Shown here: positions 7,594 to 49,920 of the stretch, in pieces
How the letters are laid out: each line of letters begins with the position of its first letter
How positions within the stretch are numbered: the first letter of the stretch is position 1
From: Candidatus Mycalebacterium zealandia
GTDB taxonomy: Bacteria > Desulfobacterota_D > UBA1144 > Nemesobacterales > Mycalebacteriaceae
Assembly: GCA_014075295.1 (NCBI GenBank)
Contig: CP046180.1
Span: 954,458 to 1,018,457, forward strand
DNA: 64,000 nucleotides
Direction of reading: 5' to 3'
Program-made: the position numbers and the translations under genes
The notes under the pieces: model-generated
The model's database searches: none
Seen by the model: the letters and a program-made list of their open reading frames with translations, nothing else
Told to the model about the DNA's origin: nothing

Positions 7594-8979
7594 CTACTCA
7601 TTCGTCCCAAAAGAGATCTCAAGCAGGCGAAGTACGGATTTCCCGCCGTTTTTGACACGCAAAGGAACGTCTTCGGGAATTTCAAGCAAATCCCCTTCCG
7701 ACAAAACTACGCTCTTGTTCGCGAGCGTTGCTGTCGCTTCGCCTTCAAGAACAATCAGACGGCCGGCCGGGGGGTCCGGCTCATACTCCATTTTTTTCTC
7801 AACAGTAACGCTCTTAACCGAAAAACCGCATCCCTTTTCAATTGTTTCTTCAGAACCCCAACCGTGTCTGGAAGAAAAAGGGCGCAGAGCTTCGGGTCTT
7901 TTTTCGCTGATTAGCGTGTCAACAACGGATTTGATTTCCCCGCTGCTTTTTATGTCGGAAACAAACAAAGCGTCCTGCTCTGAGACAATTGCGACATCCT
8001 TCAGTCCGTGAACAACAACCAGCCGCCCGTCGCCGCGAACAAGACAGTTTTCGGACTCCTGAATCACAACATCCCCGCTCAAAGCGTTGCCGCTTGAGTC
8101 CTTTTCCGAAAGGTTGTAGACGGACTCCCACGAACCAACGTCATTCCATCCGAAACTTGCCGGAATAACCGCTCCCAAATCAGTCTTTTCCATGACGGCA
8201 CAATCTATTGATATGTTGGGAGACCGCGCGTAACTCTCCGCATCCGTAACGCCAAAAGAGTTCTCTTTTGAAAGCGCTTTGCGCACCGATGAAAAAACCT
8301 TCGGAGCGTGTTTTTTCATCTCCTCCATCATAACCCGCCCTTTGAAAACAAAGATTCCGCAGTTCCACAAAAAAGAGTCCTTCACATACTTGCGTGCGGT
8401 CTGTAAGTTGGGCTTTTCAACAAACTGCTTTATCTTGAAAACCTTTCCCGAACCATCGTCCGTGTCCACGCCCTTTTCAATATAGCCGTATCCTGTTTCG
8501 GGCCGGGTCGGCGTGGCGCCGATTGTGATTATCAGCCCTTTTTCCGCCGCGGCAATCGCGGTTTTCAAAGCGTGAGACAACTGTTTTTTGTTGCCGATTA
8601 AATGATCGGACGGGGAAACCACAAAAATCGCGTCCTCATCTTCTTCTTCAAATTCGCGCAAAACGCTCATAACTCCCAGAGTGATTGCCGGAGCGGTGTT
8701 TCTTGAAAGCGGCTCGGTTGAAATGTGCGCTTTAACCGGACCAAGATGAGAACGAAGAGCCTTTTCATGTGGCGCACCCGCAAGCACAGTGATTTCAGAC
8801 AGAAAATCAAGCGATGAAAAAAGACCGACCGCCCCCCGGAGAAGGGAATCGCGCCCTTGCAGACTAAAAAGAGGTTTGGGGTAAAACCGCCGCGAAGAGG
8901 GCCAGAGCCTCTTACCGTCTCCACCCGCCATGAGCAGGCAAAAAACGCGCGAATTTTCAGATTGTTCAGTTTCGTTCAC
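7594..8979 (-). CDS. manC: mannose-1-phosphate guanylyltransferase / mannose-6-phosphate isomerase
   Basis: An N-terminal nucleotidyltransferase domain (LLMAGGDGKRLWP) plus a C-terminal cupin domain; 461 aa. Confidence 0.85.
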   Translation of the reverse strand: MNETEQSENSRVFCLLMAGGDGKRLWPSSRRFYPKPLFSLQGRDSLLRGAVGLFSSLDFLSEITVLAGAPHEKALRSHLGPVKAHISTEPLSRNTAPAITLGVMSVLREFEEEDEDAIFVVSPSDHLIGNKKQLSHALKTAIAAAEKGLIITIGATPTRPETGYGYIEKGVDTDDGSGKVFKIKQFVEKPNLQTARKYVKDSFLWNCGIFVFKGRVMMEEMKKHAPKVFSSVRKALSKENSFGVTDAESYARSPNISIDCAVMEKTDLGAVIPASFGWNDVGSWESVYNLSEKDSSGNALSGDVVIQESENCLVRGDGRLVVVHGLKDVAIVSEQDALFVSDIKSSGEIKSVVDTLISEKRPEALRPFSSRHGWGSEETIEKGCGFSVKSVTVEKKMEYEPDPPAGRLIVLEGEATATLANKSVVLSEGDLLEIPEDVPLRVKNGGKSVLRLLEISFGTNE

Positions 8980-10234
8980 TTTGTAAATCCTGATGGCAAT
9001 CGCTCAACAAGTCAAAAATATTTTTTACCGGATTAAAACTTTCAACGGGAATCTCCACAAAAACGGTTTCCCAACCCGCCATTGCGCCGTTCCACAAACC
9101 CGGCATTTCCAGAGCTTTGATTGGACGCCCCTGAAATGTTTTGTCGGCAACCATAAAAGAGTCGTCCGTATAATTTTGAAGATTGAATTTCCGCCCGTCC
9201 GCGCCACGGACGCTACAGACCATATCAACGGGATTAAAATGAGTCGCAGAGCACCAGACTTTCTCCTGCGCGGAGTCCGAATGATTAACCTCAACGGACT
9301 CAACAATCCTTTTGCTGACGCAGCCCGAAGAGTCCCGAACCCAGAACGGCGCGCCGCCCGGCTCGCCCGTGTTTTTTACGACTCCGCAAACGCGAAACGG
9401 CTTGTCCTGAGGGGTTTTCTCCATCTCTTCAATCAAAACACCCGCAAGCGCTTTTCTGTCGCTTTCGGGATTTTTCATGCGCGAGGCGTGGGCGATGTTA
9501 TCTATGTTTGAAATAAAAACAACGTCCGCTTCAACTGCTCCGAAATTTTCAAGCAGAGCGCCGTGCCCGGCGGGGCGCAAAACCGTTTCGCCGTTTTCAT
9601 CCGTAAGAAGATTGCCGTCCGAATCAAGAACGACCGTGTCGGTTCGTGGGTCCTGCGTGGAGAATGATACGGTGAACCCGTCTCCCGATTGTGTGAGGCG
9701 GTTTTTTTCCTCATCGGAAAAACCTGTGGGAACGGTAAAATGAATTTCGTCTGCGTAGGCGCGCGCGAGTTGGGAATAGTCCTCAAAAGCCGTTGTGGAA
9801 ACGCCGTCGTATCTGTGAAATTTCACAAGCCCCTTTGGAAACCCCTCGTATCCAAGTCCTTGCGCGGAGAGGACAAGTTCCGCAATTTCGTCCGGAGCAA
9901 GAGAGGAAACATCGCTCCGGCGCAAGCGCGCGCAAGCGATTTGAAGATCTTCATAGAAAGCGAATCTTTTGATATTTCGCGTGAATTCTTCAAGCGCGCC
10001 GGAGTCCCGAGCGGTCAAGTCCGCGAACATTCTACTTGCCGCTCCCGAAGCGGGAACAAATACGCAGACGCGATAATCCAGACGTTTTTTGTCATACGTC
10101 TGCCGATGGAGTTTTTTATTTTCTCCGGACAGCGAAACAATTCCGTCTCCAACCGCGCAGGGTTTCACAAGACGGACAAAAGACGGGGGGCTTCCGAGAA
10201 TTTCTATTTGAGAACGAACTGAGAGTTTTTTCAT
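8966..10234 (-). CDS. hypothetical nucleotidyltransferase-like protein (DUF4301-like, tentative)
   Basis: Track ORF trimmed to ATG 10234 (MKKLSVRSQ), because the longer N-terminus is the antisense of tRNA-Asp. A VPASGAASRMF motif is present. Overlaps the manC start by 14 nt. Confidence 0.6.
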   Translation of the reverse strand: MKKLSVRSQIEILGSPPSFVRLVKPCAVGDGIVSLSGENKKLHRQTYDKKRLDYRVCVFVPASGAASRMFADLTARDSGALEEFTRNIKRFAFYEDLQIACARLRRSDVSSLAPDEIAELVLSAQGLGYEGFPKGLVKFHRYDGVSTTAFEDYSQLARAYADEIHFTVPTGFSDEEKNRLTQSGDGFTVSFSTQDPRTDTVVLDSDGNLLTDENGETVLRPAGHGALLENFGAVEADVVFISNIDNIAHASRMKNPESDRKALAGVLIEEMEKTPQDKPFRVCGVVKNTGEPGGAPFWVRDSSGCVSKRIVESVEVNHSDSAQEKVWCSATHFNPVDMVCSVRGADGRKFNLQNYTDDSFMVADKTFQGRPIKALEMPGLWNGAMAGWETVFVEIPVESFNPVKNIFDLLSDCHQDLQSERN

Positions 10235-22006: not shown

Positions 22007-22915
22007 CTAACTGTCTAATCTTACCTTTTTCTCCAGCAAGTAGTTGCAAAACGCACTACATATAACAAGCATAAATTTTGCATCTTCAAAAGAGGCTTTC
22101 ATATCATTTGTTGTTCCGTGGCGAATACCATCTTCATCACTTGTGTATGCATACAACTTTTCCAAGGCAATTTTGAATGCCGGATGCAATTGTGTAGCAG
22201 ATTCTACTTCGTTTATACAATCTGATAATGTCGCATTGGACTTGCTGGCAATCTCTTTGCAGATTTGTTCTACGGCACTAATTGATTCTTTGATGGAATT
22301 TTCGTAGTCGGGGTTTTTTCTGTCATATAAGTGGTCGATTGCTTTCTCTATGTGAGGAGAGTGTTGAACAGCTTTCTCTACGGACTGTTTTTCCTCTTCG
22401 CTATCAAGGTCTGTTATTTGACCTTTTATAAGTCGGTATCCAACACATTGTTCTCTGAATACATCATTAAACTCATTGGTAAGTTGCTGAATAATTTCTG
22501 ATGATTGGTCATCAACAAGAAGGTCAATGAAGTCAAGTTTGTCATTATAAGAACTATCAAAAAAGAAACTACGATATTGTTTATATGAATCATCATTAAG
22601 CTTATATGACCATTCGTTGATAAGTTTACGTCCTATGGATTTAGGTCTAGGGTGAGAATCGTAAATTCCAGTAAATCTATCTAGGGGTTTTTCTAACAAT
22701 TCAGAGTGAATTTTTCTCATAGAATTAGTGACTTTCTGCCTATGTTCTTCCAGTTCTTCTATGCGGGAATAGGAACTTCCGAAATCCTGATTCCCCCCTT
22801 CAAAGAATTTAGTAACAACATCCCAAATTTTATTCTCTGTTACGGCATCAAACTCATCCTTTTGGAGAGTGGGCGACTCTTTCAAACCCTTTCTATAAGA
22901 AAATGTTTTCTTCAT
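22007..22915 (-). CDS. low-GC orphan protein, Abi/HEPN-type abortive-infection-like (tentative)
   Basis: A 302-aa ORF at about 38% GC (by eye) versus about 55% in neighbours. C-terminal ...DEDGIRHGTTNDMKASFEDAKFMLVICSAF resembles the R..HG core of Abi_C/HEPN-like domains; the N-terminus is a K/E-rich helical region. An AAAGG ribosome-binding site lies 8 nt upstream of the ATG. Confidence 0.6.
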   Translation of the reverse strand: MKKTFSYRKGLKESPTLQKDEFDAVTENKIWDVVTKFFEGGNQDFGSSYSRIEELEEHRQKVTNSMRKIHSELLEKPLDRFTGIYDSHPRPKSIGRKLINEWSYKLNDDSYKQYRSFFFDSSYNDKLDFIDLLVDDQSSEIIQQLTNEFNDVFREQCVGYRLIKGQITDLDSEEEKQSVEKAVQHSPHIEKAIDHLYDRKNPDYENSIKESISAVEQICKEIASKSNATLSDCINEVESATQLHPAFKIALEKLYAYTSDEDGIRHGTTNDMKASFEDAKFMLVICSAFCNYLLEKKVRLDS

Positions 22916-22933: not shown

Positions 22934-23113
22934 TCAACCCCTGATTTCTCGGAGAATATCGGCTTGACTACCAAGTGCATACGCCGAGTTCACAATAAAG
23001 AAGCCAAAATTGTTGGACTTGGCTTCGTCTATGGCGGAGAGAACCAACTTCTTCTGTTTGCCCTCAATGCCATTCCTCGCAAAAAACTCATCAACACGCT
23101 CACCATTAATCAC
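22934..23113 (-). CDS. 59-aa hypothetical small protein, translationally coupled to nuoL
   Basis: The GTG start overlaps the nuoL TGA stop (GTGA). It encodes VINGERVDEFFARNGIEGKQKKLVLSAIDEAKSNNFGFFIVNSAYALGSQADILREIRG and stops 17 nt before the ATG of the Abi-like gene. Absent from the ORF track, whose apparent cutoff is 60 aa. Confidence 0.35.
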   Translation of the reverse strand: MINGERVDEFFARNGIEGKQKKLVLSAIDEAKSNNFGFFIVNSAYALGSQADILREIRG

Positions 23114-25041
23114 ATCTTCACCGACACAATCACAAGCAGAACAATAAATACCACCATAGCGGCGGTATAAGCCCTCACAAAACCGCTTTGGAGAATACTG
23201 AAAAACCGCGCGAGCCTTTTCGTCGCGTCCGCAACACCGTTCACCGCGCCGTCCACAACGGAAGTATCAAACTCCGCGAAAGATTTTGAAAAATGCCTGA
23301 ATGGAACCGAAAACACCTTTTCGTAAAACTCATTGAGCAGAATTTGAGAATGCGAAAACCTTCTCGCCGCGCCGATTGCCGTGGTTTCCACAATTTTCTC
23401 CCGCAAGCGCGGAGAGGCTTGGTATAACAGAAGCGCGGCACCGATTCCGCCAAACGCGGCAATCACCGAAACAAGCGCAAGGGTGTAATGGCTGAGCCCG
23501 CCGTTGGCGGAGGGAACAAACACGCCCGTAACAGGCTCAAGAAAATGCGTAAGAAACTCTTCACCGAACGGAAAAAACTCCGAGAGAAAATGTGGGACGG
23601 AAAGAAAACCGCCAAAAATCGCGAGCGCCGCAAGGCACACGAGAGGAATCGTCATAACTGGCGGAGACTCATAGATTTTTTCCGCCGCTTCGGGCGGAGT
23701 GTTGTTTCCGCCCTCAAAAACGCGGAGATAAAGCCGCATCATATAAAACGCCGTCAGCATCGCGCCGAAAACAGCGGCGACCCAGTGCAAAACAAAACCG
23801 CCGTCATAAACAGCGGCAAGAATGGAATCCTTGCTGAAAAATCCCGCAAAAAACGGCACGCCTGAAATTGCCAGAGTTCCAATGAGAAAAGTGAACGCGG
23901 TAACGGGGATTTTTTTTCTCAATCCACCCATAAATTTCATATCCTGCTCGCCGCCCAGAGCGTGAATAACACTGCCCGCTCCGAGAAAAAGTAACGCCTT
24001 GAAAAAAGCGTGCGTTACAAGATGAAAAATTGCCACTCCGAACGCTCCCGCTCCCGCCGCCATAAACATAAAACCGAGTTGGCTAACGGTTGAATACGCA
24101 AGAACTTTTTTTATGTCGGTCTGGGAAACCGCGATGTAAGCCGCCACAAGAGCGGTAAAAACCGCCACTGTTAGAATGACAAACTGCGCGTCCGGCGCCG
24201 AGGAATAAAGAACGGCGAGTCGCGCGAGCATATAAACTCCGGCGGTAACCATGGTCGCCGCATGGATAAGAGCGCTTACGGGAGTGGGTCCCGCCATCGC
24301 GTCCGGAAGCCATACATAAAGCGGAAACTGCGCGCTTTTTCCAACCGCTCCGATAAAAAGAAGCAAACACACGGCGGTAAGAGCCCACTGCGGAGCGGCG
24401 GGAGCGGCGGAAATAATTTCAGAAAATTCAAGGGAGCCGAAAACCGCAAACACCAGAAAAATTCCCAGCATAAAACCGAAATCCCCTATGCGGTTCACGA
24501 CAAACGCTTTTCTGCCGGCATCAGATTTTGCTGAGTCATTGAACCAGAAACCGATGAGCAGGTAGGAGACAAAACCCACTCCCTCCCAACCGGCAAACAT
24601 TACGACAAACCCCGAGCCGAGAACGAGCAGAAGCATAAAAAACACAAACAAATTCAGAAGCGCGAAATAGCGCGGAACCGCGCCGTCTCCTTTCATGTAT
24701 CCGGCTGAATACACGTGAATCAAAAACCCCACCCACGTTATGACAAGTGTCATCACCGCGGACAGGCGGTCAAAAACAAAACTGAAAGATACCGCGAGTG
24801 AGCCGGAGGAGAACCATTCAAAAAATCTGAACTGCTCGGGCGAGCCGGAATAAACACCGTACGCGAGAACCGAAGCGCAAAGCGCGGAAATCAGAACTGC
24901 CACCGAACCGACAAAAGCGGACGCCTTCGCCTCAAAACCGGGCGACACAGCGTGCAAACGCCGGAGAAGTCCGGTTGAAATCAAAATGCCGTTGATGAAC
25001 GCTCCGGCAAGAGGGGTTAAAAGTATTAAAGGCAACATCAT
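23110..25041 (-). CDS. nuoL: NADH-quinone oxidoreductase subunit L
   Basis: 643-aa polytopic antiporter-like subunit with the long C-terminal amphipathic helix; overlaps the nuoK stop. Confidence 0.9.
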   Translation of the reverse strand: MMLPLILLTPLAGAFINGILISTGLLRRLHAVSPGFEAKASAFVGSVAVLISALCASVLAYGVYSGSPEQFRFFEWFSSGSLAVSFSFVFDRLSAVMTLVITWVGFLIHVYSAGYMKGDGAVPRYFALLNLFVFFMLLLVLGSGFVVMFAGWEGVGFVSYLLIGFWFNDSAKSDAGRKAFVVNRIGDFGFMLGIFLVFAVFGSLEFSEIISAAPAAPQWALTAVCLLLFIGAVGKSAQFPLYVWLPDAMAGPTPVSALIHAATMVTAGVYMLARLAVLYSSAPDAQFVILTVAVFTALVAAYIAVSQTDIKKVLAYSTVSQLGFMFMAAGAGAFGVAIFHLVTHAFFKALLFLGAGSVIHALGGEQDMKFMGGLRKKIPVTAFTFLIGTLAISGVPFFAGFFSKDSILAAVYDGGFVLHWVAAVFGAMLTAFYMMRLYLRVFEGGNNTPPEAAEKIYESPPVMTIPLVCLAALAIFGGFLSVPHFLSEFFPFGEEFLTHFLEPVTGVFVPSANGGLSHYTLALVSVIAAFGGIGAALLLYQASPRLREKIVETTAIGAARRFSHSQILLNEFYEKVFSVPFRHFSKSFAEFDTSVVDGAVNGVADATKRLARFFSILQSGFVRAYTAAMVVFIVLLVIVSVKM

Positions 25042-25337
25042 CCGCGAAAGTTTCTTATCAAATCTATGTTCAGACTTTTCAGCCCGGAGTAGAGAACAAT
25101 AACCAGCGCAAGCCCGATTGCGACCTCCGCCGCCGCCACCGTTATGGAAACCAGAACCAGCACATTGCCCGCTCCGTCTTCAAAAAGCCGCGAAAACGCT
25201 ATGAGGCAAAGGTTTGCCGCATTAAGCATAATCTCAACCGACATCAGAACAACAAGAATGTTTTTTCTTGTGAACACACCGAAAGCCCCAATGACAAAAA
25301 GGGCAAACGCAAGCGCGATGTATCCGTCCGGCGTCAA
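25038..25337 (-). CDS. nuoK: NADH-quinone oxidoreductase subunit K
   Basis: 99 aa with three TM helices and conserved glutamates (MSVEIMLNAANL, AAAEVAIGLAL). Confidence 0.9.
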   Translation of the reverse strand: MTPDGYIALAFALFVIGAFGVFTRKNILVVLMSVEIMLNAANLCLIAFSRLFEDGAGNVLVLVSITVAAAEVAIGLALVIVLYSGLKSLNIDLIRNFRG

Positions 25338-25870
25338 CGCAGACCCCTTGAAATCGCCACCGTTCCGACAATCGCCGCCACAATGAGAATTGAAGTTACT
25401 TCAAAAGCAAACAGATAGTCCGTGAGCAAAAGCCACGACATCTCCGAAACTGTTCCGTCAAAATCTCCCGTGCGGGCTGGCGCGGCGAACGGGGCAATTT
25501 TCAGCCCGAAATACACCGCCGCGACAATCGCGGGCAGAAGAAATGACAGTTTTTTCGGAATCTCCGACGGACCGAATTCCTCGTCGCTTTTGCGCACATT
25601 GAGAAAAACAATCGTGAAAAGAAAAAGAACGACAATTGCGCCCGCATAAACAAGCACCTGAACCGCCGCCAGAAAATGAGCGTCAAGAATACCGAAAAGC
25701 ACGGCGGATGAAACGATTGTTACAACAAGTGAAATCGCGCACAGAGCCGTGTTTGGAAGCAAAACAACCGCAATCGCGGACACAACGGCGAGCGCGGAAA
25801 ATATGTAAAAGAAAAGCGACTCGGCAACGGGCATTTGGTTGAACTTTACAGGAAATAGGGGGTGAGGCAA
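25334..25870 (-). CDS. nuoJ: NADH-quinone oxidoreductase subunit J
   Basis: NuoJ-like TM protein (VQVLVYAGAIVVLFLFTIVFL). Confidence 0.85.
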   Translation of the reverse strand: MPHPLFPVKFNQMPVAESLFFYIFSALAVVSAIAVVLLPNTALCAISLVVTIVSSAVLFGILDAHFLAAVQVLVYAGAIVVLFLFTIVFLNVRKSDEEFGPSEIPKKLSFLLPAIVAAVYFGLKIAPFAAPARTGDFDGTVSEMSWLLLTDYLFAFEVTSILIVAAIVGTVAISRGLR

Positions 25871-25904
25871 TAGAAAGTCTCAGTATTCAACACCTTGCTT
25901 ATCC

Positions 25905-27032
25905 TTATCTGTCCACCTTGTTAACAGTAGGTTTTGGTATATGCAATGGCATATTCGGATTTCCTTTTACAAATGGGGCAATACAAATAAGTCGGTGGGC
26001 ATTCTTGCTTGGATACCACTGTTTCCGCCAATGCATACGGACCCACCAACGCTTGTCCCACTCTGATTTACCTGTGCCTGGTTGATCTTTTATTTTTCTC
26101 CAAGTTACTACATTAACTTCAGTTTGGCTTACTGGTAAATCCATACCTATGCGCTTTCGGTCCGGTCGTTTCAATGCCTTTTCGCTTAGCACATCTACAA
26201 GTTTTTGCTCTAAGAAAGCAGTCATTTTTGCCGCAATAAAAAACCATGGATGATGAGCCGGTACGGCTGGTGCTACTAGCCTGAGAATATCTTTTTCAAG
26301 AGCTTCTGCTATAACCACTTGTTTATTATCAGGAATATTTTCCTCTACAGGGTTAGGATATATTCCCAACACTTCTCTCTGAGGCGTAATGATTATTGCA
26401 AAAGGAAAAAAGTTTTTTGAAAGATGTAATCTGTCAGCGACTTTGCCTTCATTAATCTTTCTAAACAGGTGAAACCCTACACCAATACCTTCAGGAAGTA
26501 TGAGCGACTCTGTTTCCAAGTTGTCAACATCGGGCATTGACAACACCTCTTCAATTTGTTCCGTGTGCCAATACCATGTCGGCATATCATCAAAAAACAA
26601 ATCCTCGAAATGAGATTCTAGCATTTGTTTTACAGCCTCTGCTTCCCCCGCACTGCTAGTAGAAAAATGAGAATTGACTATGCGGTCCCAACGTTTTTTA
26701 TCTGGTATATATCTTTTTATAATTTCATGTTTGGACAACATCTGTTGTTGTTTTGTTGTTTCCGCAATTTCTTTCCAGCTATCAGCGCCCTGAAAACAAC
26801 CCCGATTAATAAGGGTCTCCGTTATTCTTTCCACTGTGGGATGGCACTTTGAACATAGGGCTACAAGATTCTCTAGATTATCTGTCCCGCCGCGTCTTCT
26901 TGAAACAATATGATGAACATGAAGATTTTGCTTTTCAGGTTTATCCCCGCAAATCCGACACACCTTATCTCTTTCTCTTACTTCGGTGTATATGTCCGTC
27001 TCTGCTATTTTTTCCCATTTCCCCGACTTCAC
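25905..27032 (-). CDS. low-GC HNH endonuclease domain protein with an uncharacterised roughly 270-aa C-terminal region
   Basis: GTG start 1 nt after the nth stop. The N-terminus has CRICGDKPEKQNLHVHHIVSRRRGGTDNLENLVALCSKCH (HNH/zinc-binding). The C-terminus has no motif I recognise. GC is about 41% by eye. Confidence 0.75.
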   Translation of the reverse strand: MKSGKWEKIAETDIYTEVRERDKVCRICGDKPEKQNLHVHHIVSRRRGGTDNLENLVALCSKCHPTVERITETLINRGCFQGADSWKEIAETTKQQQMLSKHEIIKRYIPDKKRWDRIVNSHFSTSSAGEAEAVKQMLESHFEDLFFDDMPTWYWHTEQIEEVLSMPDVDNLETESLILPEGIGVGFHLFRKINEGKVADRLHLSKNFFPFAIIITPQREVLGIYPNPVEENIPDNKQVVIAEALEKDILRLVAPAVPAHHPWFFIAAKMTAFLEQKLVDVLSEKALKRPDRKRIGMDLPVSQTEVNVVTWRKIKDQPGTGKSEWDKRWWVRMHWRKQWYPSKNAHRLICIAPFVKGNPNMPLHIPKPTVNKVDR

Positions 27033-27033
27033 T

Positions 27034-27747
27034 TTATTTCACCCCGACCCTCATGCACCACTTACTCACCGGACAAACATCGCACTTTGGCGAGATGGGT
27101 TTGCAGATTGTCTGCCCGAACGCGACAAGCAGACCGTTGTATTCAATCCAGTATTTTCCCGGCAGTTTTTCGCGTAGCGCAAACTCGGTTTTTTCCGGCG
27201 TTTTTGTGCGCACATAGCCAAGCCTATTGGAAATTCTGTGAACGTGTATGTCAACACAAATCCCGGGTTTGCCGTAACCGAGTGTTACGACAAGATTGGC
27301 GGTTTTTCTTCCGACTCCATCAAAATCCAGAAGTTCATCAATCGTGTCCGGCACTTCACCGCCGCGCTCATTTTCAAGCCGCTTGCAAAGTTTGATTATG
27401 TTCGCCGCTTTTGTTCTGTAAAAACCAACCGGATAGATCAGTTTTTGAACCGTTTTCTCTCCCAGAGAGATAATCGCACGAGGCGTTTTCGCTTCGGCAA
27501 ATAATCTTCTTGAAGCCGCCGCGGTTGTTTCGTCTCTTGTGCGCAAACTCAAGATTGTGGAAATCAAAATCCTGAACGGGTCGCCGCCGTGCGTTTCCTC
27601 AAGGTTCATAACGGGCGGATTCCACTTTCGGGACTTAGTCCTCAAAATTGAGATGACTTTTGAAATGTTGGCGTCCGCAAACGCACCCTTATCAAAAGCC
27701 CGTATTGCGCGGGATGTTTTCGGCAACGGTCTATTGAAGCGGCTCAT
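27034..27747 (-). CDS. nth: endonuclease III
   Basis: HhH-GPD fold (LVAFGQTIC), catalytic K/D residues, and a C-terminal 4Fe-4S motif CKPISPKCDVCPVSKWC. Confidence 0.9.
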   Translation of the reverse strand: MSRFNRPLPKTSRAIRAFDKGAFADANISKVISILRTKSRKWNPPVMNLEETHGGDPFRILISTILSLRTRDETTAAASRRLFAEAKTPRAIISLGEKTVQKLIYPVGFYRTKAANIIKLCKRLENERGGEVPDTIDELLDFDGVGRKTANLVVTLGYGKPGICVDIHVHRISNRLGYVRTKTPEKTEFALREKLPGKYWIEYNGLLVAFGQTICKPISPKCDVCPVSKWCMRVGVK

Positions 27748-28534
27748 CGCCGCCCGCGGCGGCGCACATCTGCCTCAAATCCTCCCATTTTTGAAAGAAG
27801 CGCGCGGAAATTTCGTAAGACTCTTTCCACTTGCCCTCGTCAAGCAGGGAGAAAATCTTGGCGACCTGCTCAACCGAACGCTCCCTGTCAAGCGACTGCG
27901 GCGTCAGAACCGAGCACACATCGCCGTAGTTCAAAACCGCATAGCCGCCCTCCTCACGCCCTGAAAACCATCTGTCCATATTTCTCACACCTTTTTCCAT
28001 CCACTCAACCATCGCACGCAGTTTTTCGTGATCTGTTTTGTCAAACGCGCGCGAAAGAGTCTCTTCGGCGGCGGCGAGTTTTTCCCGCGTGGGGCCGACC
28101 TTTGTGTTGTAATGAATTGAACTAAAACCCCAGTGGGAATAAAAATTACGCCTGCCCGATTCCTCAAAAGCGGCAAACCATTCAAACGGAACCGCGTTCT
28201 CGCACGAAAGTATGTTGGGATTTTCCGCGCCGCCCAGAGGACAGACGTATAGAACCCCGTCTTCGCTTCTGATGAAAAAACAGTCTCTCACGGCGGGCTC
28301 TTCAACCCCCATGTGGTCGGCAATGGCGCGGCGGAAGTTCCCGTATTCATTACCGAACCAGATGCCAAACGGAGACATGGGACCTCCCCAATACTGCTCG
28401 TAAAAATCTATGTATTGCCGCCAGTATGAACGCTCATCTTCGGGCACGCTTTCAATGGAATCGTAGATAATGAGAGTGCTCTGCGCCACGCGGCAAATAC
28501 CTCTCAGCAAGTATAAGGGCGTCTGTGCCGGCAC
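27731..28534 (-). CDS. hypothetical protein
   Basis: A 267-aa ORF at native GC whose stop overlaps the nth start by 17 nt; rich in aromatic residues (W/F/Y); no recognised motif. Confidence 0.55.
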   Translation of the reverse strand: MPAQTPLYLLRGICRVAQSTLIIYDSIESVPEDERSYWRQYIDFYEQYWGGPMSPFGIWFGNEYGNFRRAIADHMGVEEPAVRDCFFIRSEDGVLYVCPLGGAENPNILSCENAVPFEWFAAFEESGRRNFYSHWGFSSIHYNTKVGPTREKLAAAEETLSRAFDKTDHEKLRAMVEWMEKGVRNMDRWFSGREEGGYAVLNYGDVCSVLTPQSLDRERSVEQVAKIFSLLDEGKWKESYEISARFFQKWEDLRQMCAAAGGDEPLQ

Positions 28535-42373: not shown

Positions 42374-42726
42374 TGGTGGAGGCGGCGGGAATTGAACCCG
42401 CGTCCGCAAAAGAGAATCACCCAGCCTCTACATGCTTATCCCGCCGTAATTTGACGGAGAAAGTTGCCGGCGGGCGAGCGCTTTTTCCGTTTTCCCGATG
42501 AGTTTTCTCACCCGTTCGCGCACCGGAAGCCGCGAACAAGCCAGCCTGCTGGATGCCGCCTCACGAAGCCCGCAGGCATTGCCGCGTGAAGCGCTGCGGC
42601 GTTAATTAGGCCGCAAGTGCGTTAATTGGTTCGCCGTTTAATAAGCGAGAGGTCAGTTTAACGAGTTAGCCAAGCTCGGCATGCAACATGAGCTGTCTTC
42701 AGATACGTCGAAGCCAGTTCGCCCCC
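42374..42726 (-). ncRNA. ssrA: transfer-messenger RNA (tmRNA, SsrA)
   Basis: 5' GGGGGCGAACUGGCUUCGACG and 3' GGACGCGGGUUCAAUUCCCGCCGCCUCCACCA, i.e. a tRNA-Ala-like acceptor with the G3-U wobble pair. An internal tag ORF reads ...NGEPINALAA-stop. About 353 nt. Confidence 0.85.
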
Positions 42727-46634: not shown

Positions 46635-47417
46635 TTAAATTATCCCCGCAAGGAACAGGATTTTTGATATGAAATAGTCGCATACGAGAATCATCACTAT
46701 TGACGCGACAACCGCGCGCGTAACCGAAACCCCGATTTGGCGAGGCCCGCCGGTTGTTTCAAGCCCGATTTTGCAACAAATCACCAAAATAACAAAACCG
46801 AAAACAAGCGCTTTTATAACGCCGTTCAAAACCGTTTTCAGATCAACGAAATCACCCAGATTATTGAAATAGGTAACCGCCGGAAGAGAAATCTCCGGAT
46901 TTGTCGCTCCAACGAGCGCACCGCCGAGCCAGCCCGTAACAATCATTAAAAGCACAAGAATTGGCATTGAAACCGCAAAAGCCACGAGGCGGGGCATCAC
47001 AAGAAATTTTACGGGGTCTATTTTCATTGTTTTGAGCGCATCAATCTCATCGTAAACCCTCATTGACGCAAGTTCCGCGGTTATTGATGAACCCAAACGC
47101 CCGGCAACCAGAATTGAACACATAACAGGCCCGATTTCCCTTGAAACCGCCACGCCTATGAGCCCGCCGAGAGTTTCCTGAATTCCAAAATCGGCAAGAA
47201 GCGGACCCGTTTGAAGGGCAAGAACCGCGCCGCCCGAAAGCCCGATAACCGAAGCGACAAGAAGCGTGTCTGAGCCGATTACGACTATTTGAAAAAACAC
47301 CTTGTCCGCGTTCGCTCTGATGTCTTTACACCAGTAAGCGGAGAGAAAAAACAAACGAAGCGCGCCGCCCGTGAAAAACGCAAAACGGTTTAGAATTCCC
47401 TCTTTCATCTGCGGCAA
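46635..47417 (-). CDS. mlaE: ABC transporter permease MlaE
   Basis: 260-aa MlaE/Ttg2B-type permease with about five TM segments. Confidence 0.85.
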   Translation of the reverse strand: MPQMKEGILNRFAFFTGGALRLFFLSAYWCKDIRANADKVFFQIVVIGSDTLLVASVIGLSGGAVLALQTGPLLADFGIQETLGGLIGVAVSREIGPVMCSILVAGRLGSSITAELASMRVYDEIDALKTMKIDPVKFLVMPRLVAFAVSMPILVLLMIVTGWLGGALVGATNPEISLPAVTYFNNLGDFVDLKTVLNGVIKALVFGFVILVICCKIGLETTGGPRQIGVSVTRAVVASIVMILVCDYFISKILFLAGII

Positions 47418-48805
47418 TTCTCCACACTTTTTACGGGACTTCCAACCTTAAGCGGTAAAAACAAGAATCGTATTCTGCGCCCCTGCAAGTCTGACGCGTA
47501 GCCAAACGCCTTTCCGGCAATATGAAAAAAACTCTCATCGCATGATTTTCTGAAATTCAAAGTTCCGAACAAAAGAGAAACCGCAGTTCCCTTTCCGCGT
47601 TTTCTGCGGACTTCAAAAACTCTCCATAGAAAAGAGTAGTTTCTGTAAAACTTCGCGCTTGAACCGACAAACGGCTCAAAAGGCGCAAGCATGTGAAAAT
47701 AAGAACGTCCCTTGTCATCGCGTTTGTATGAAAACACGGGCCACAAATCAACCTTGAGCGAACTGCCCCTCCGAATTTTGTCAAACGGGGTTTCGCGCAC
47801 AACTTTAAGAGCAATCAGAAAACTGTCTTTTTTATATTCATGATGTTTGAATTTCAGTCTGGAAGACGTGTAAAGCGGCCATAGGAGAAACTTTGTTTTC
47901 TTCACCCCAAACGTCTCGGATGTTTCAAAAAAAGGAAAAAATCTCACTCTTCTCTCCGTATCGCTTTTTTTGAAATTTATAATGGGCCACGGCAAATGAA
48001 TAGAACGCAGATTACGTTCCGGATCAACGCTTTTCTGAAAAAAGGGCCACATATACATTGTGTGTGATTCGGTTCCGTAATTAATTCTGTAATAAAAAGG
48101 AAAAAACGCCCTGTAGCGTCTGTAGGTTTCACCGCTTCCTTTTTTCACATCAAAATGAAAAGGCCACAGCAAAAATCTGGAATGGGAATTCTTTCCTTTA
48201 GACCACCCGAACAGGGGCCAGAAGCGAATCCCTTTTTTCTTGCCCGAATAAAACGCGAAGACGGGCCACAAGAAATTGCGGGAAATCTCGCCATCTGAAC
48301 TGACGGTACGAAAATAGAGAGGGAAAAGAACAAATTTTGTTTTCCCGCCAAAATTTCCGTAAAACGGCGCAAACGCAAAAGACCTTTCCGCCGGATTCGG
48401 AGATGAGCGGTGAAAAATCAGAGGGTATATTCTGAGACTTTTTCCGCCGGAGCCGGTCAAGCCGGTTTGTTTTGAAAACGAAAGAGAATTAAAGAAAATC
48501 CCCATCCTGTATCCTCTCGGAGTTGCCCGATAGTGAAAAAAAGGATACAGAAAATCAAGGGACATAGAATCAAGCGACCTGTCTTTTTTAACATAAAACA
48601 GGGGCCTGAACGCAAACTCGGTTCTTTTTTCGTCTTTCACTCTGAGGAATGGTCCAAATGAATACGCGGACACAGAACTGTCTTCGCGGGAAACCCCAAA
48701 TGGGTCAGGTCTGAGAAAAAGCGCGTCCGCCGGGCGGGTTTGAACCACAATCATGAAAAAGACAATTAGCGAAAAAATCGCACGCGATGTTATACGGCAA
48801 CTCAA
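47405..48805 (-). CDS. secreted hypothetical protein with about 15 degenerate W-P-aromatic repeats
   Basis: The TTG start overlaps the alr TGA stop (TTGA), giving a signal peptide MSCRITSRAIFSLIVFFMIVVQTRPADA. Repeated [FL][WYF]P[LVFI][FY] cores (LWPVFAF, FWPLFGW, LWPFHFD, MWPFFQK, FFPFFET, LWPLYTS...). The stop overlaps the mlaE start. Confidence 0.6.
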   Translation of the reverse strand: MSCRITSRAIFSLIVFFMIVVQTRPADALFLRPDPFGVSREDSSVSAYSFGPFLRVKDEKRTEFAFRPLFYVKKDRSLDSMSLDFLYPFFHYRATPRGYRMGIFFNSLSFSKQTGLTGSGGKSLRIYPLIFHRSSPNPAERSFAFAPFYGNFGGKTKFVLFPLYFRTVSSDGEISRNFLWPVFAFYSGKKKGIRFWPLFGWSKGKNSHSRFLLWPFHFDVKKGSGETYRRYRAFFPFYYRINYGTESHTMYMWPFFQKSVDPERNLRSIHLPWPIINFKKSDTERRVRFFPFFETSETFGVKKTKFLLWPLYTSSRLKFKHHEYKKDSFLIALKVVRETPFDKIRRGSSLKVDLWPVFSYKRDDKGRSYFHMLAPFEPFVGSSAKFYRNYSFLWRVFEVRRKRGKGTAVSLLFGTLNFRKSCDESFFHIAGKAFGYASDLQGRRIRFLFLPLKVGSPVKSVENCRR

Positions 48806-49920
48806 TTTTCCTGATGTGGCTCCGCCGGCTCGTTTGAAATTCTTACACGAACTTTGCCCCCGATGAGCGTCATGATTTCGTAAGGTATGGTGCCCGCCCA
48901 CTGCGCCACATCTTCAACGAAAATTCCCTCGCCCCCGAATAAAATCACTTCATCCCCGATTTTAACCTGCGGAACACCGGTAATATCCAGAGTTGTAAAA
49001 TCCATGCACACTTCTCCCACGACCGGAACGGAAACACCGTTTACCGAAACACGGGCGCGGTTGGAAAGGCTTCTGTAATACCCGTCCTTGTATCCGACCG
49101 GAATGGTCGCGAGCAGCGAGGATTTTTTTGTTTTAAAAGTCCCGCCGTAACCAATCGGCTTGCCCGCGCCGATTTTTCTTATTCTTACAACCGAAGTTTT
49201 AACCTTCATGACCGGAGCCAGCCCGTTTTTTTCAAAAGACGAGCCGTAAAGCATAATTCCGGGCCTTACCATGTTGCCAAACGATTCTGAAAATCTCTGA
49301 ATCGCCGCGCTGTTCGCCATATGTTTGAAGTATGGACGCACGCCTGAATTTTCAAGATCCGAAACAACCGAATTAAATTCGGCAATCTGCTTAAAAGTCG
49401 GTTCGGGTTCAGAAGCCGAAGAATGGGCGAAATGAGTAAACACACCCGCGAGATTCAAGCCCGGTAAGGTGCGCGCTTTTTCCATTAAATCAAAAACATC
49501 TTCCCTTGTGGCGCCGAGGCGTGCCATTCCGGTGTCTATCTTAAGGTGGTATTCCACCTTTTTGCCGGATTTTTTTGCGGCTTTGGAAAGAGAATTAAGA
49601 CAGTTTTCCGTAAAAACCGAAAGCGTAAGCCCGGCTTTGACGGCATCCGCGACCAAACAGTCCTGCGTCACGCCCATAACAAGAACGGGCGCCGAAACAC
49701 CGGACTCCCTTATCTCCAGCCCCTCCTCAACCGAGGAAACTCCAAGCATCACAACCGGAGGAAGTTTCGCGAGTTTTCTGCTGATTTCAACCGCGCCGTG
49801 CCCGTACGCATCCGCCTTGACGACAGCCGTTATCCCGACATCCTTTCCGACCGTCCGCGCCGACAATTCCACATTGCTTCTCAATGCATTGAAATCAATT
49901 TCAGTCCATACGCGGTTCAT
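48802..49920 (-). CDS. alr: alanine racemase
   Basis: PLP-lysine context (AVVKADAYGHG). Start chosen at ATG 49920 (MNRVWTEIDFNALRSNVE); the track's longer start is 49989. Confidence 0.85.
   Translation of the reverse strand: MNRVWTEIDFNALRSNVELSARTVGKDVGITAVVKADAYGHGAVEISRKLAKLPPVVMLGVSSVEEGLEIRESGVSAPVLVMGVTQDCLVADAVKAGLTLSVFTENCLNSLSKAAKKSGKKVEYHLKIDTGMARLGATREDVFDLMEKARTLPGLNLAGVFTHFAHSSASEPEPTFKQIAEFNSVVSDLENSGVRPYFKHMANSAAIQRFSESFGNMVRPGIMLYGSSFEKNGLAPVMKVKTSVVRIRKIGAGKPIGYGGTFKTKKSSLLATIPVGYKDGYYRSLSNRARVSVNGVSVPVVGEVCMDFTTLDITGVPQVKIGDEVILFGGEGIFVEDVAQWAGTIPYEIMTLIGGKVRVRISNEPAEPHQEN

Follow-up and report, generated by a model that had tools for sequence, protein, structure and literature searches.

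Within the 64,000-nucleotide (nt) stretch of Candidatus Mycalebacterium zealandia DNA analysed here (the 64-kb window), the minus strand carries a 375-amino-acid (aa) open reading frame (ORF) at 25905-27032, with a GTG start and its stop codon at 25905-25907. The product joins an N-terminal HNH nuclease domain to a core of ~270 aa, and the ORF is called the HNH-fusion gene below. Its host is a sponge symbiont of the class Ca. Dadabacteria. By profile and motif matches, the HNH-fusion protein belongs to phrog_15934, a catalogued, uncharacterised family of phage and plasmid proteins. What is new here is a chromosomal, HNH-fused member in Dadabacteria; the family itself was already catalogued as phrog_15934. 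We give even chances to the explanation that a selfish or conflict gene of phage origin was left stranded here, as an insertion of one gene into the nth-nuoJKL transcription unit. On the best reading it belongs neither among the core genes nor to a recognised defence system. For this genome the gene matters little, since it is an accessory passenger of a housekeeping operon and probably in decay. Its value is that of a pointer to a very large uncharacterised phage and plasmid family for which Pfam, NCBIfam and the defence databases hold no model, and which combines a sharply conserved C-terminal motif with recurrent HNH fusion.

The HNH domain and the phrog_15934 core

The HNH-fusion gene begins directly behind nth. 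The nth stop codon TAA (27034-27036) is followed by a single spacer base (27033) and then by the GTG (27032-27030), and the coordinates thus bear out the ORF and the start that an earlier note on this DNA had given. The start region (27033-27062, minus strand) contains the nth stop, the 1-nt spacer and a G-rich GGGGTGA 7-13 nt 5′ of the GTG, which is a possible ribosome-binding site. The sequence of this region is kept in the ortholog L001 described below. The layout suggests translational coupling to nth. Public gene callers begin at an internal ATG (M98) and give a 278-aa product (P0001) from which the HNH domain is dropped; no ribosome-binding-site-like sequence was found upstream of M98. 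The product of the full ORF shares 100% identity with NCBI QMU56478.1, which is annotated as a "hypothetical protein" in Ca. Mycalebacterium zealandia. At the other end, the gap to nuoJ is 34 nt with the TTG start of nuoJ at 25870, as the earlier note had it, but 70 nt with the ATG of the public gene calls.

The HNH nuclease domain (residues 19-74; 26811-26978, minus strand) has all key residues intact. It matched Pfam PF01844 over residues 25-65 (E = 7.7e-13, 48.8 bits against a cut-off of 21.4), in agreement with the N-terminal HNH that had been recognised by eye. The zinc ligands are C25, C28, C60 and C63, arranged as two CxxC pairs, and the catalytic residues as read from the translation are H41 (with H40), N52, N55 and H64. 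Both sets are also intact in L001. The AlphaFold2 (AF2) model of the HNH region (predicted local distance difference test score, pLDDT, ~82-89) contains the beta-beta-alpha metal-finger fold and matches the HNH domains of 4h9d, Cas9, McrA and ZRANB3. Among solved structures the best HNH match found by Foldseek was 4h9d, a Geobacter prophage HNH protein. The domain is complete and, judged by its residues, catalytically intact.

The best NCBIfam match of residues 19-74 was IscB (NF040563; E = 1e-11), and a PDB sequence search with the protein also matched the HNH domains of IscB and Cas9. An IscB-type RNA-guided nuclease was considered as a candidate. The score of 44.6 bits lies below the cut-off of 175, the match covers the HNH region only, and neither RuvC nor PLMP was found in the protein. 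The intergenic gaps measure only 1 nt and 34-70 nt, and no Rfam family was matched near the gene. With no RuvC and no room for a guide RNA, the IscB reading was therefore rejected; the likeness of the protein to IscB and Cas9 is confined to the HNH fold.

A linker (residues 75-97; 26742-26810, minus strand) lies between the HNH domain and M98 and forms part of a predicted helix, 83-108. The family core starts with residues 98-144 (26601-26741, minus strand), which hold the conserved '(K/R)YIP..W' and 'GEAEA(V/I)K' segments. The '(K/R)YIP..W..GEAEA(V/I)K' segment is common to the nearest HNH-less, stand-alone relatives, L175 and L177. Both relatives begin at the equivalent of residue ~100, and the HNH-fusion protein is therefore the core with an HNH domain attached in front. 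A separate observation on L177 is that its gene as called (218 aa) probably starts too late, as the ORF reaches a GTG at 7875 and would then encode 260 aa; the extended ORF takes in the conserved 'KYIP..GEAEAIK' segment. The variable middle domain (residues 145-255; 26268-26600, minus strand) begins with a 'PTWYW' strand. It is poorly conserved across the family and is the fastest-evolving part of the protein, with a ratio of nonsynonymous to synonymous divergence (dN/dS) of 0.64. The conserved C-terminal module (residues 256-375; 25908-26267, minus strand) carries the phrog_15934 match and a weak AcrVA2/FinQ alignment. In the AF2 model it consists of a helix (262-275), an arginine-rich RPDRKR segment and a four-strand beta-meander. 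Its signature motif (residues 329-357; 25962-26048, minus strand), WWVRMHWRKQWYPSKNAHRLICIAPFVKG, corresponds to the family consensus RWxVxGHWRxQWYPS...H..IWIxPxxKG. At position 333 the HNH-fusion protein carries M; in 90% of members this residue is G.

The region behind the HNH domain had been called unrecognisable. This held for residues ~100-375 against Pfam, NCBIfam and PADLOC, where no match was found, and PDB sequence searches, whether the query was the protein itself or the profile of the family, returned HNH matches only, or none. It did not hold for the PHROG library, in which phrog_15934 matched residues 300-370 at profile positions 226-300 of 305 (E = 2.2e-12). An exhaustive HMMER search with residues 75-375 gave 2,425 representative proteins at E<=1e-3, representatives being clusters at 50% identity. 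Their median length is 300 aa, and they have the last ~110 residues in common. A word-indexed search of a 5.8-billion-protein database returned only 2-3 matches, with the profile included; those from the protein query were the protein itself and one relative of 67% identity. The word-indexed search being nearly empty, the exhaustive HMMER search was needed to reveal the family.

All 50 aligned relatives matched phrog_15934 (best E = 8.5e-32). Their consensus reads R..RRR...V.VV.LR.....V.W..RW.V.GHWR.QWYPS...H..IWI.P..KGP.D.PL. In this alignment G357 is invariant, and R289, R312, W329, V331, H334, R336, Q338 and K356 are at least 90% conserved. The front half of the family is highly variable in the same alignment, and the N-terminal and middle parts of the HNH-fusion protein align with its nearest relatives only. 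The earlier suggestion of a sensor or specificity domain is partly in keeping with this arrangement, a variable, specificity-like half being followed by a conserved module. An N-terminal HNH was found by Pfam in 7 of the 50 members (~14%). This Pfam count was taken as the fused fraction, as a regular expression applied to 150 representatives (3 found) was too strict. Scans of the 50 relatives with Pfam, NCBIfam and PADLOC gave nothing beyond HNH. The archetypes of phrog_15934 are gp029 of Corynebacterium phage phi16, which matches the profile end to end (E = 3e-112), and gp103 of Streptomyces phage Yara. The HNH-fusion protein shares with them the C-terminal RWxVxGHWRxQWYPS...KG module. The members are typically ~300 aa long, live on mobile elements and mostly lack the HNH domain, whereas the HNH-fusion protein is chromosomal in a non-actinobacterial symbiont.

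Possible kinship of the C-terminal module with AcrVA2 and FinQ

AcrVA2 was the top non-HNH structural match of the HNH-fusion model. The structure search proposed in the earlier note thus yielded a lead for the C-terminus, and the profile searches yielded phrog_15934 but no Pfam family. AcrVA2 binds the nascent Cas12a polypeptide, which leads to loss of the Cas12a mRNA (Marino et al., bioRxiv 10.1101/2022.11.29.518452). According to the same work, AcrVA2 is ~320 aa long with a variable N-terminal part and conservation in the C-terminal part only; residues H286, R288 and H291 are essential; and ~1,800 homologs, the plasmid fertility inhibitor FinQ included, occur on plasmids and phages, mostly without Cas12a (bioRxiv 10.1101/2022.11.29.518452).

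In the AF2 model of AcrVA2 (pLDDT 88) the elements follow one another over the last 100-120 residues as they do in the HNH-fusion model. In these two independent models, the regions compared were ~262-357 of the HNH-fusion protein and 196-315 of AcrVA2. The order in common is a long helix, a strand, a short helix, a strand and a four-strand meander. Both meanders contain two central strands of 7 residues, each of which opens with HW. The models differ in the AcrVA2 helix 258-274, which is a loop in the HNH-fusion model. In sequence, the C-termini run RPHIRRGHWHGYWQG..FRVRWQPAVFVNSG in AcrVA2, HMRRAHWRTYWTGP..VKVLRWIPPTFVKG in a megaphage AcrVA2 homolog and RWWVRMHWRKQWYPS..HRLICIAPFVKG in the HNH-fusion protein. 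AcrVA2/FinQ and the HNH-fusion protein both end with a ..GHW[HR]x[YQ]W.. strand, a hydrophobic strand and P..V[KN]G. The phrog_15934 and AcrVA2 profiles, built from 50 and 6 sequences respectively, were aligned by hhalign with the C-terminal motifs in one register (E = 0.0018); with larger profiles of 153 and 85 sequences the E-value was 0.03-0.05. The observed hhalign score was reached by 4 of 150 column shuffles. In this register the essential H291 of AcrVA2 corresponds to H334, which is at least 90% conserved in phrog_15934. At the level of the families, both AcrVA2/FinQ and phrog_15934 comprise proteins of ~300-350 aa with a variable N-terminal part and a conserved C-terminus, and both are widespread on plasmids and phages. 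None of the AcrVA2 homologs met in the analysis carried an HNH domain.

Several results weigh against the kinship, and to that extent against the part of the favoured explanation that draws on it. The hhalign probability for the link was only 1-15%. None of the 50 members matched Pfam PF26125 (AcrVA2/FinQ; PDB 7CI1/7CI2) at E<=0.01, and hmmsearch --max between phrog_15934 and AcrVA2, run both ways, gave nothing beyond the reversed-sequence control. The essential H286 and R288 of AcrVA2 correspond to W329 and V331 in the HNH-fusion protein. By these sequence comparisons the HNH-fusion protein falls outside the AcrVA2 family in its present definition. On balance we lean towards a distant homology of the C-terminal module with AcrVA2/FinQ, for which the model comparison and the common register of the motifs argue. 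If this kinship is real, it would greatly enlarge the AcrVA2/FinQ family, whose mechanism (target-specific mRNA destruction) is still unexplained, and the HNH fusions would be a natural clue to how cleavage is achieved. A larger claim would be that phrog_15934, with at least 2,400 clusters, is an unrecognised sister family of AcrVA2/FinQ, and that the HNH fusions show that the scaffold brings a nuclease to its target. We regard this larger claim as rather doubtful. If it is true, it would point to a missing nuclease step in the mechanism of AcrVA2 and FinQ, and would define a wide class of programmable knock-down proteins that act where mobile elements and hosts are in conflict.

Locus, relatives and origin of the HNH-fusion gene

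The HNH-fusion gene has a GC content of 0.408 and a GC content at third codon positions (GC3) of 0.34. Its neighbours have GC contents of 0.486 (nth), 0.503 (nuoJ), 0.514 (nuoL) and 0.534 (DUF8083), with GC3 of 0.53-0.55. The dip noticed in the earlier note is thus real, and the low-GC stretch (25801-27100) coincides with the ORF, but the neighbours lie at about 49-53% and not at ~55%. The absence of an element around the gene was confirmed. No direct or inverted repeat above chance-sized matches was found in its flanks, no integrase flanks it, and the closest tRNA gene is more than 11 kb away. Within 10 kb there is no terminase, portal or other phage gene. An integrated element or prophage remnant, considered as a further candidate, was ruled out on these grounds. 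At the borders of the gene no promoter or terminator signal exceeded the shuffled expectation, and the gene therefore appears to be read within the DUF8083-nth-X-nuoJKL string.

On four phage contigs, HNH-fused relatives were found in structural (head and packaging) operons at non-equivalent positions. The gene order is large terminase subunit (TerL), portal, fusion, protease and capsid on L087, and TerL, portal, small ORF, fusion, small ORF, methyltransferase, protease and capsid on L086. On L090 the fusion follows a head-tail adaptor gene, with a tape measure gene further along, and on L089 it lies upstream of the capsid gene. The fusion thus stands close after TerL and portal on 2 of the 4 contigs. 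Unfused members were found on 78 actinobacterial plasmids, where they are always annotated as hypothetical, and in 3 phages, with primase, helicase or recombinase genes close by. In Streptomyces phage Yara the unfused member abuts the DNA primase gene, directly downstream of it, and in Corynebacterium phage phi16 gp029 adjoins the second tyrosine recombinase. The distribution of the family is that of a mobile-element accessory or conflict gene.

Some HNH-less members are found at chromosomal sites and have other neighbours. In L177 (5352-8657) a Bub-type cluster (Multi_ubiq/Prok-E2, ThiF E1 and BubE) lies upstream of the member, 85 nt away. In L085 (3289-6134) an AAA_15/AAA_21 ATPase gene, a gene for a 192-aa protein and the HNH-less member form what looks like an operon of three genes and are followed by a Fic gene. 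The best PADLOC matches of the ATPase were HEC-02A, PD-T4-4_A and AriA, and the 192-aa protein matched nothing in any library. The three genes could be an undescribed defence or counter-defence module. The HNH-less relative L175, 35-43% identical to the HNH-fusion protein, comes from a Dadabacteria metagenome-assembled genome; the GC content of its gene is 0.49 against 0.57-0.63 in that genome. A DUF8083 gene (8912-9694), with 32% identity to the DUF8083 of the window, is convergent to it. In two divergent Dadabacteria genomes, a member of the family thus has a DUF8083 gene in its neighbourhood.

The only ortholog is L001, from JGI metagenome 3300002516, which has the same junction of nth stop, 1-nt spacer and GTG. 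The gene is therefore present at this site in one other genome, the only one to which the proposed check for presence and native GC could be applied; there it is AT-rich too but frameshifted. In L001 the HNH domain and the core are out of frame because an A-run near position 565 has lost 1 nt, and at 600-700 a 72-nt tandem-like duplication doubles the GEAEA(V/I)KQ segment of the linker. Past the gene, L001 contains ~130 base pairs of nuoJ-like sequence with a 19-nt deletion, and the sequences then diverge; nuoJKL may therefore be truncated or rearranged in L001. Between the two genomes, dN/dS is 0.42 for the HNH domain, 0.64 for the middle domain and 0.56 for the conserved C-terminal end, against 0.08 for the 3′ end of nth. 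Over the whole HNH-fusion gene the proportion of nonsynonymous differences (pN, 0.164) is lower than that of synonymous differences (pS, 0.265; Fisher p = 8e-4). The constraint on the gene is thus weak, but the gene is not dead. It has diverged from L001 about as much as the flanks have, which is in keeping with a gene already present in a common ancestor and passed on vertically. Among 160 nth-homolog loci (80 from GTDB and 80 from metagenomes, at most 68% identical), none had synteny with the nth-nuoJ locus.

In the favoured explanation, a phage-derived gene stranded behind nth, the product consists of a catalytically complete HNH nuclease (residues 1-97) and the phrog_15934 core of ~270 aa. 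The variable middle domain would select a specific target, and the arginine-rich beta-meander of the C-terminus (RPDRKR ... HWRKQWYPS ... FVKG) would hold nucleic acid, with H334, R336 and Q338 on one face of a strand. The HNH domain would then supply cleavage in cis. In phages, the fused version may behave as a free-standing homing-type or mobile accessory nuclease at varied spots between head genes. For the unfused core, a sister-family relation to AcrVA2/FinQ, mobile-element proteins that knock down specific genes of rivals or hosts, is probable. In Ca. Mycalebacterium zealandia the gene would be read through from nth and, being weakly constrained, is probably decaying. Against this explanation stand the following points. 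On 12 contigs of Ca. Mycalebacterium zealandia the HNH-fusion gene has one and the same intact sequence, and this, together with dN/dS significantly below 1, may mean that it still has a use for the host. The adjacency of core and DUF8083 in L175 hints at long residence in the lineage and not at a recent arrival. No empty, gene-less nth-nuoJ allele was found, L001 being the only other genome that shares the junction, and no cleavage target of the protein was found.

Several of the same observations would also be accounted for by a free-standing HNH homing endonuclease of the classical kind, in which the core is a sequence-specific DNA-binding domain. Such an enzyme would cut the nth-nuoJ site where the gene is missing, or, in its phage setting, sites that separate head genes, and repair would then copy the gene in; the stand-alone cores would be DNA-binding regulators of mobile elements. 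The precise single-gene insertion 1 nt past a conserved gene, with no repeats or mobility genes of its own, speaks for it, as do the AT-rich composition, the arginine-rich and strand-rich C-terminus and the varied positions of the fusion between conserved phage structural genes. In HNH homing enzymes, I-HmuI for example, the HNH domain usually comes first and the binding region lies C-terminal to it; the HNH-fusion protein would share this order. Relaxed selection and a frameshifted ortholog would fit a cycle of gain and then decay. However, the nuclease is present in only ~14% of the closest 50 members, the core being mainly a stand-alone protein of ~300 aa, and none of the binding modules NUMOD, IENR1, AP2 and HTH was detected in the HNH-fusion protein. 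Neither an empty target nor a second insertion site was found, and both genomes with the gene have it in one place with flank-like divergence, which fits vertical descent. We consider homing in this classical sense unlikely.

The earlier note had favoured an anti-phage or selfish nuclease. The foreign and accessory character of the gene, its phage and mobile-element relatives and its relaxed constraint agree with the selfish part of this proposal, but no known anti-phage system was recognised. A single-gene anti-phage nuclease, in which the core senses infection and releases the HNH activity in a defence hotspot with the AbiJ-like gene, seems improbable to us. HNH effectors are common in defence systems, an AbiJ_NTD4/PDC-S32 candidate lies 3 kb away in another low-GC insertion, and close unfused relatives adjoin Bub-like E1/E2/BubE genes, an AriA/HEC-02A-like ATPase gene and a Fic gene. 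On the other side, PADLOC models (PADLOC-DB 2.0) matched the core in 0 of 6 members tested. The HNH-fusion protein gave only weak, generic matches confined to the HNH domain (DpdF, 4e-06; ZorE, ~1e-04), five HNH-less cores matched nothing, and the fused relative P0007 had weak HNH-type matches only. The nearest HNH-fused relatives are encoded by phages in structural operons, much of the family is found on plasmids and phages, and selection is relaxed with a frameshifted ortholog. The nearest characterised likenesses, AcrVA2 and FinQ, are proteins of counter-defence or of competition between elements and not of host defence. The proposed hotspot resolves into two separate single-gene low-GC insertions that flank nuoJKL, and is not a defence island.

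The gene might also be the remnant of a phage DNA-packaging HNH protein of the HK97 gp74 type, which worked with terminase and portal and is now functionless in the chromosome; we hold this to be very improbable. The best solved-structure match, 4h9d, belongs to a class (Gme HNH, PDB 4H9D) whose genes lie next to cos and terminase genes (PMC3592412). HNH domains of the HK97 gp74 class are of the same type as that of the HNH-fusion protein, with two CxxC zinc pairs, and a fused relative follows TerL and portal on the two phage contigs noted above. Packaging HNH proteins are ~100-130 aa long and are not known to carry a 270-aa core. They are small, single-domain enzymes encoded beside terminase, whereas the HNH-fusion protein adds the 270-aa core, and the matched chains of 4h9d comprise only 81-97 residues. 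Other phage contigs place the fusion after a head-tail adaptor gene or among small ORFs, the surroundings of the HNH-fusion gene are devoid of terminase, portal and phage genes over 10 kb, and dN/dS below 1 speaks against a wholly dead gene.

Neighbouring genes and other features of the window

The gene directly upstream of the HNH-fusion gene is nth (endonuclease III; 27034-27747, minus strand). A DUF8083 (PF26312) gene at 27731-28534 (minus strand) overlaps its start. Directly downstream of the HNH-fusion gene is nuoJ (25334-25870, minus strand), which is followed by nuoK and nuoL. These three nuo genes span 23110-25870 on the minus strand, no other nuo genes were found within 10 kb on either side, and nuoJKL is bracketed by two low-GC insertions. 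The second of these is the AbiJ-like gene (22007-22915, minus strand; GC 0.36), a separate single-gene insertion. Its recognition in the earlier note was correct: the 302-aa product matched AbiJ_NTD4 (E = 6e-21) and, end to end, the PADLOC candidate system PDC-S32 (E = 4e-79).

A third low-GC stretch of the window (47401-48500) lies inside a 498-aa ORF at 47405-48901 (minus strand), which is rich in repeated F/W/R/K motifs (LWP.F-like). Immediately downstream, and overlapping this ORF by 13 nt, is a gene for a predicted multi-pass membrane protein (46635-47417); MlaE-like is our guess for it from the sequence. A tmRNA gene was identified at 42374-42726 on the minus strand (Rfam, 152.6 bits). 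The tag peptide predicted for it by ARAGORN, ARPPATFSVKLRRDKHVEAG, is unusually long.

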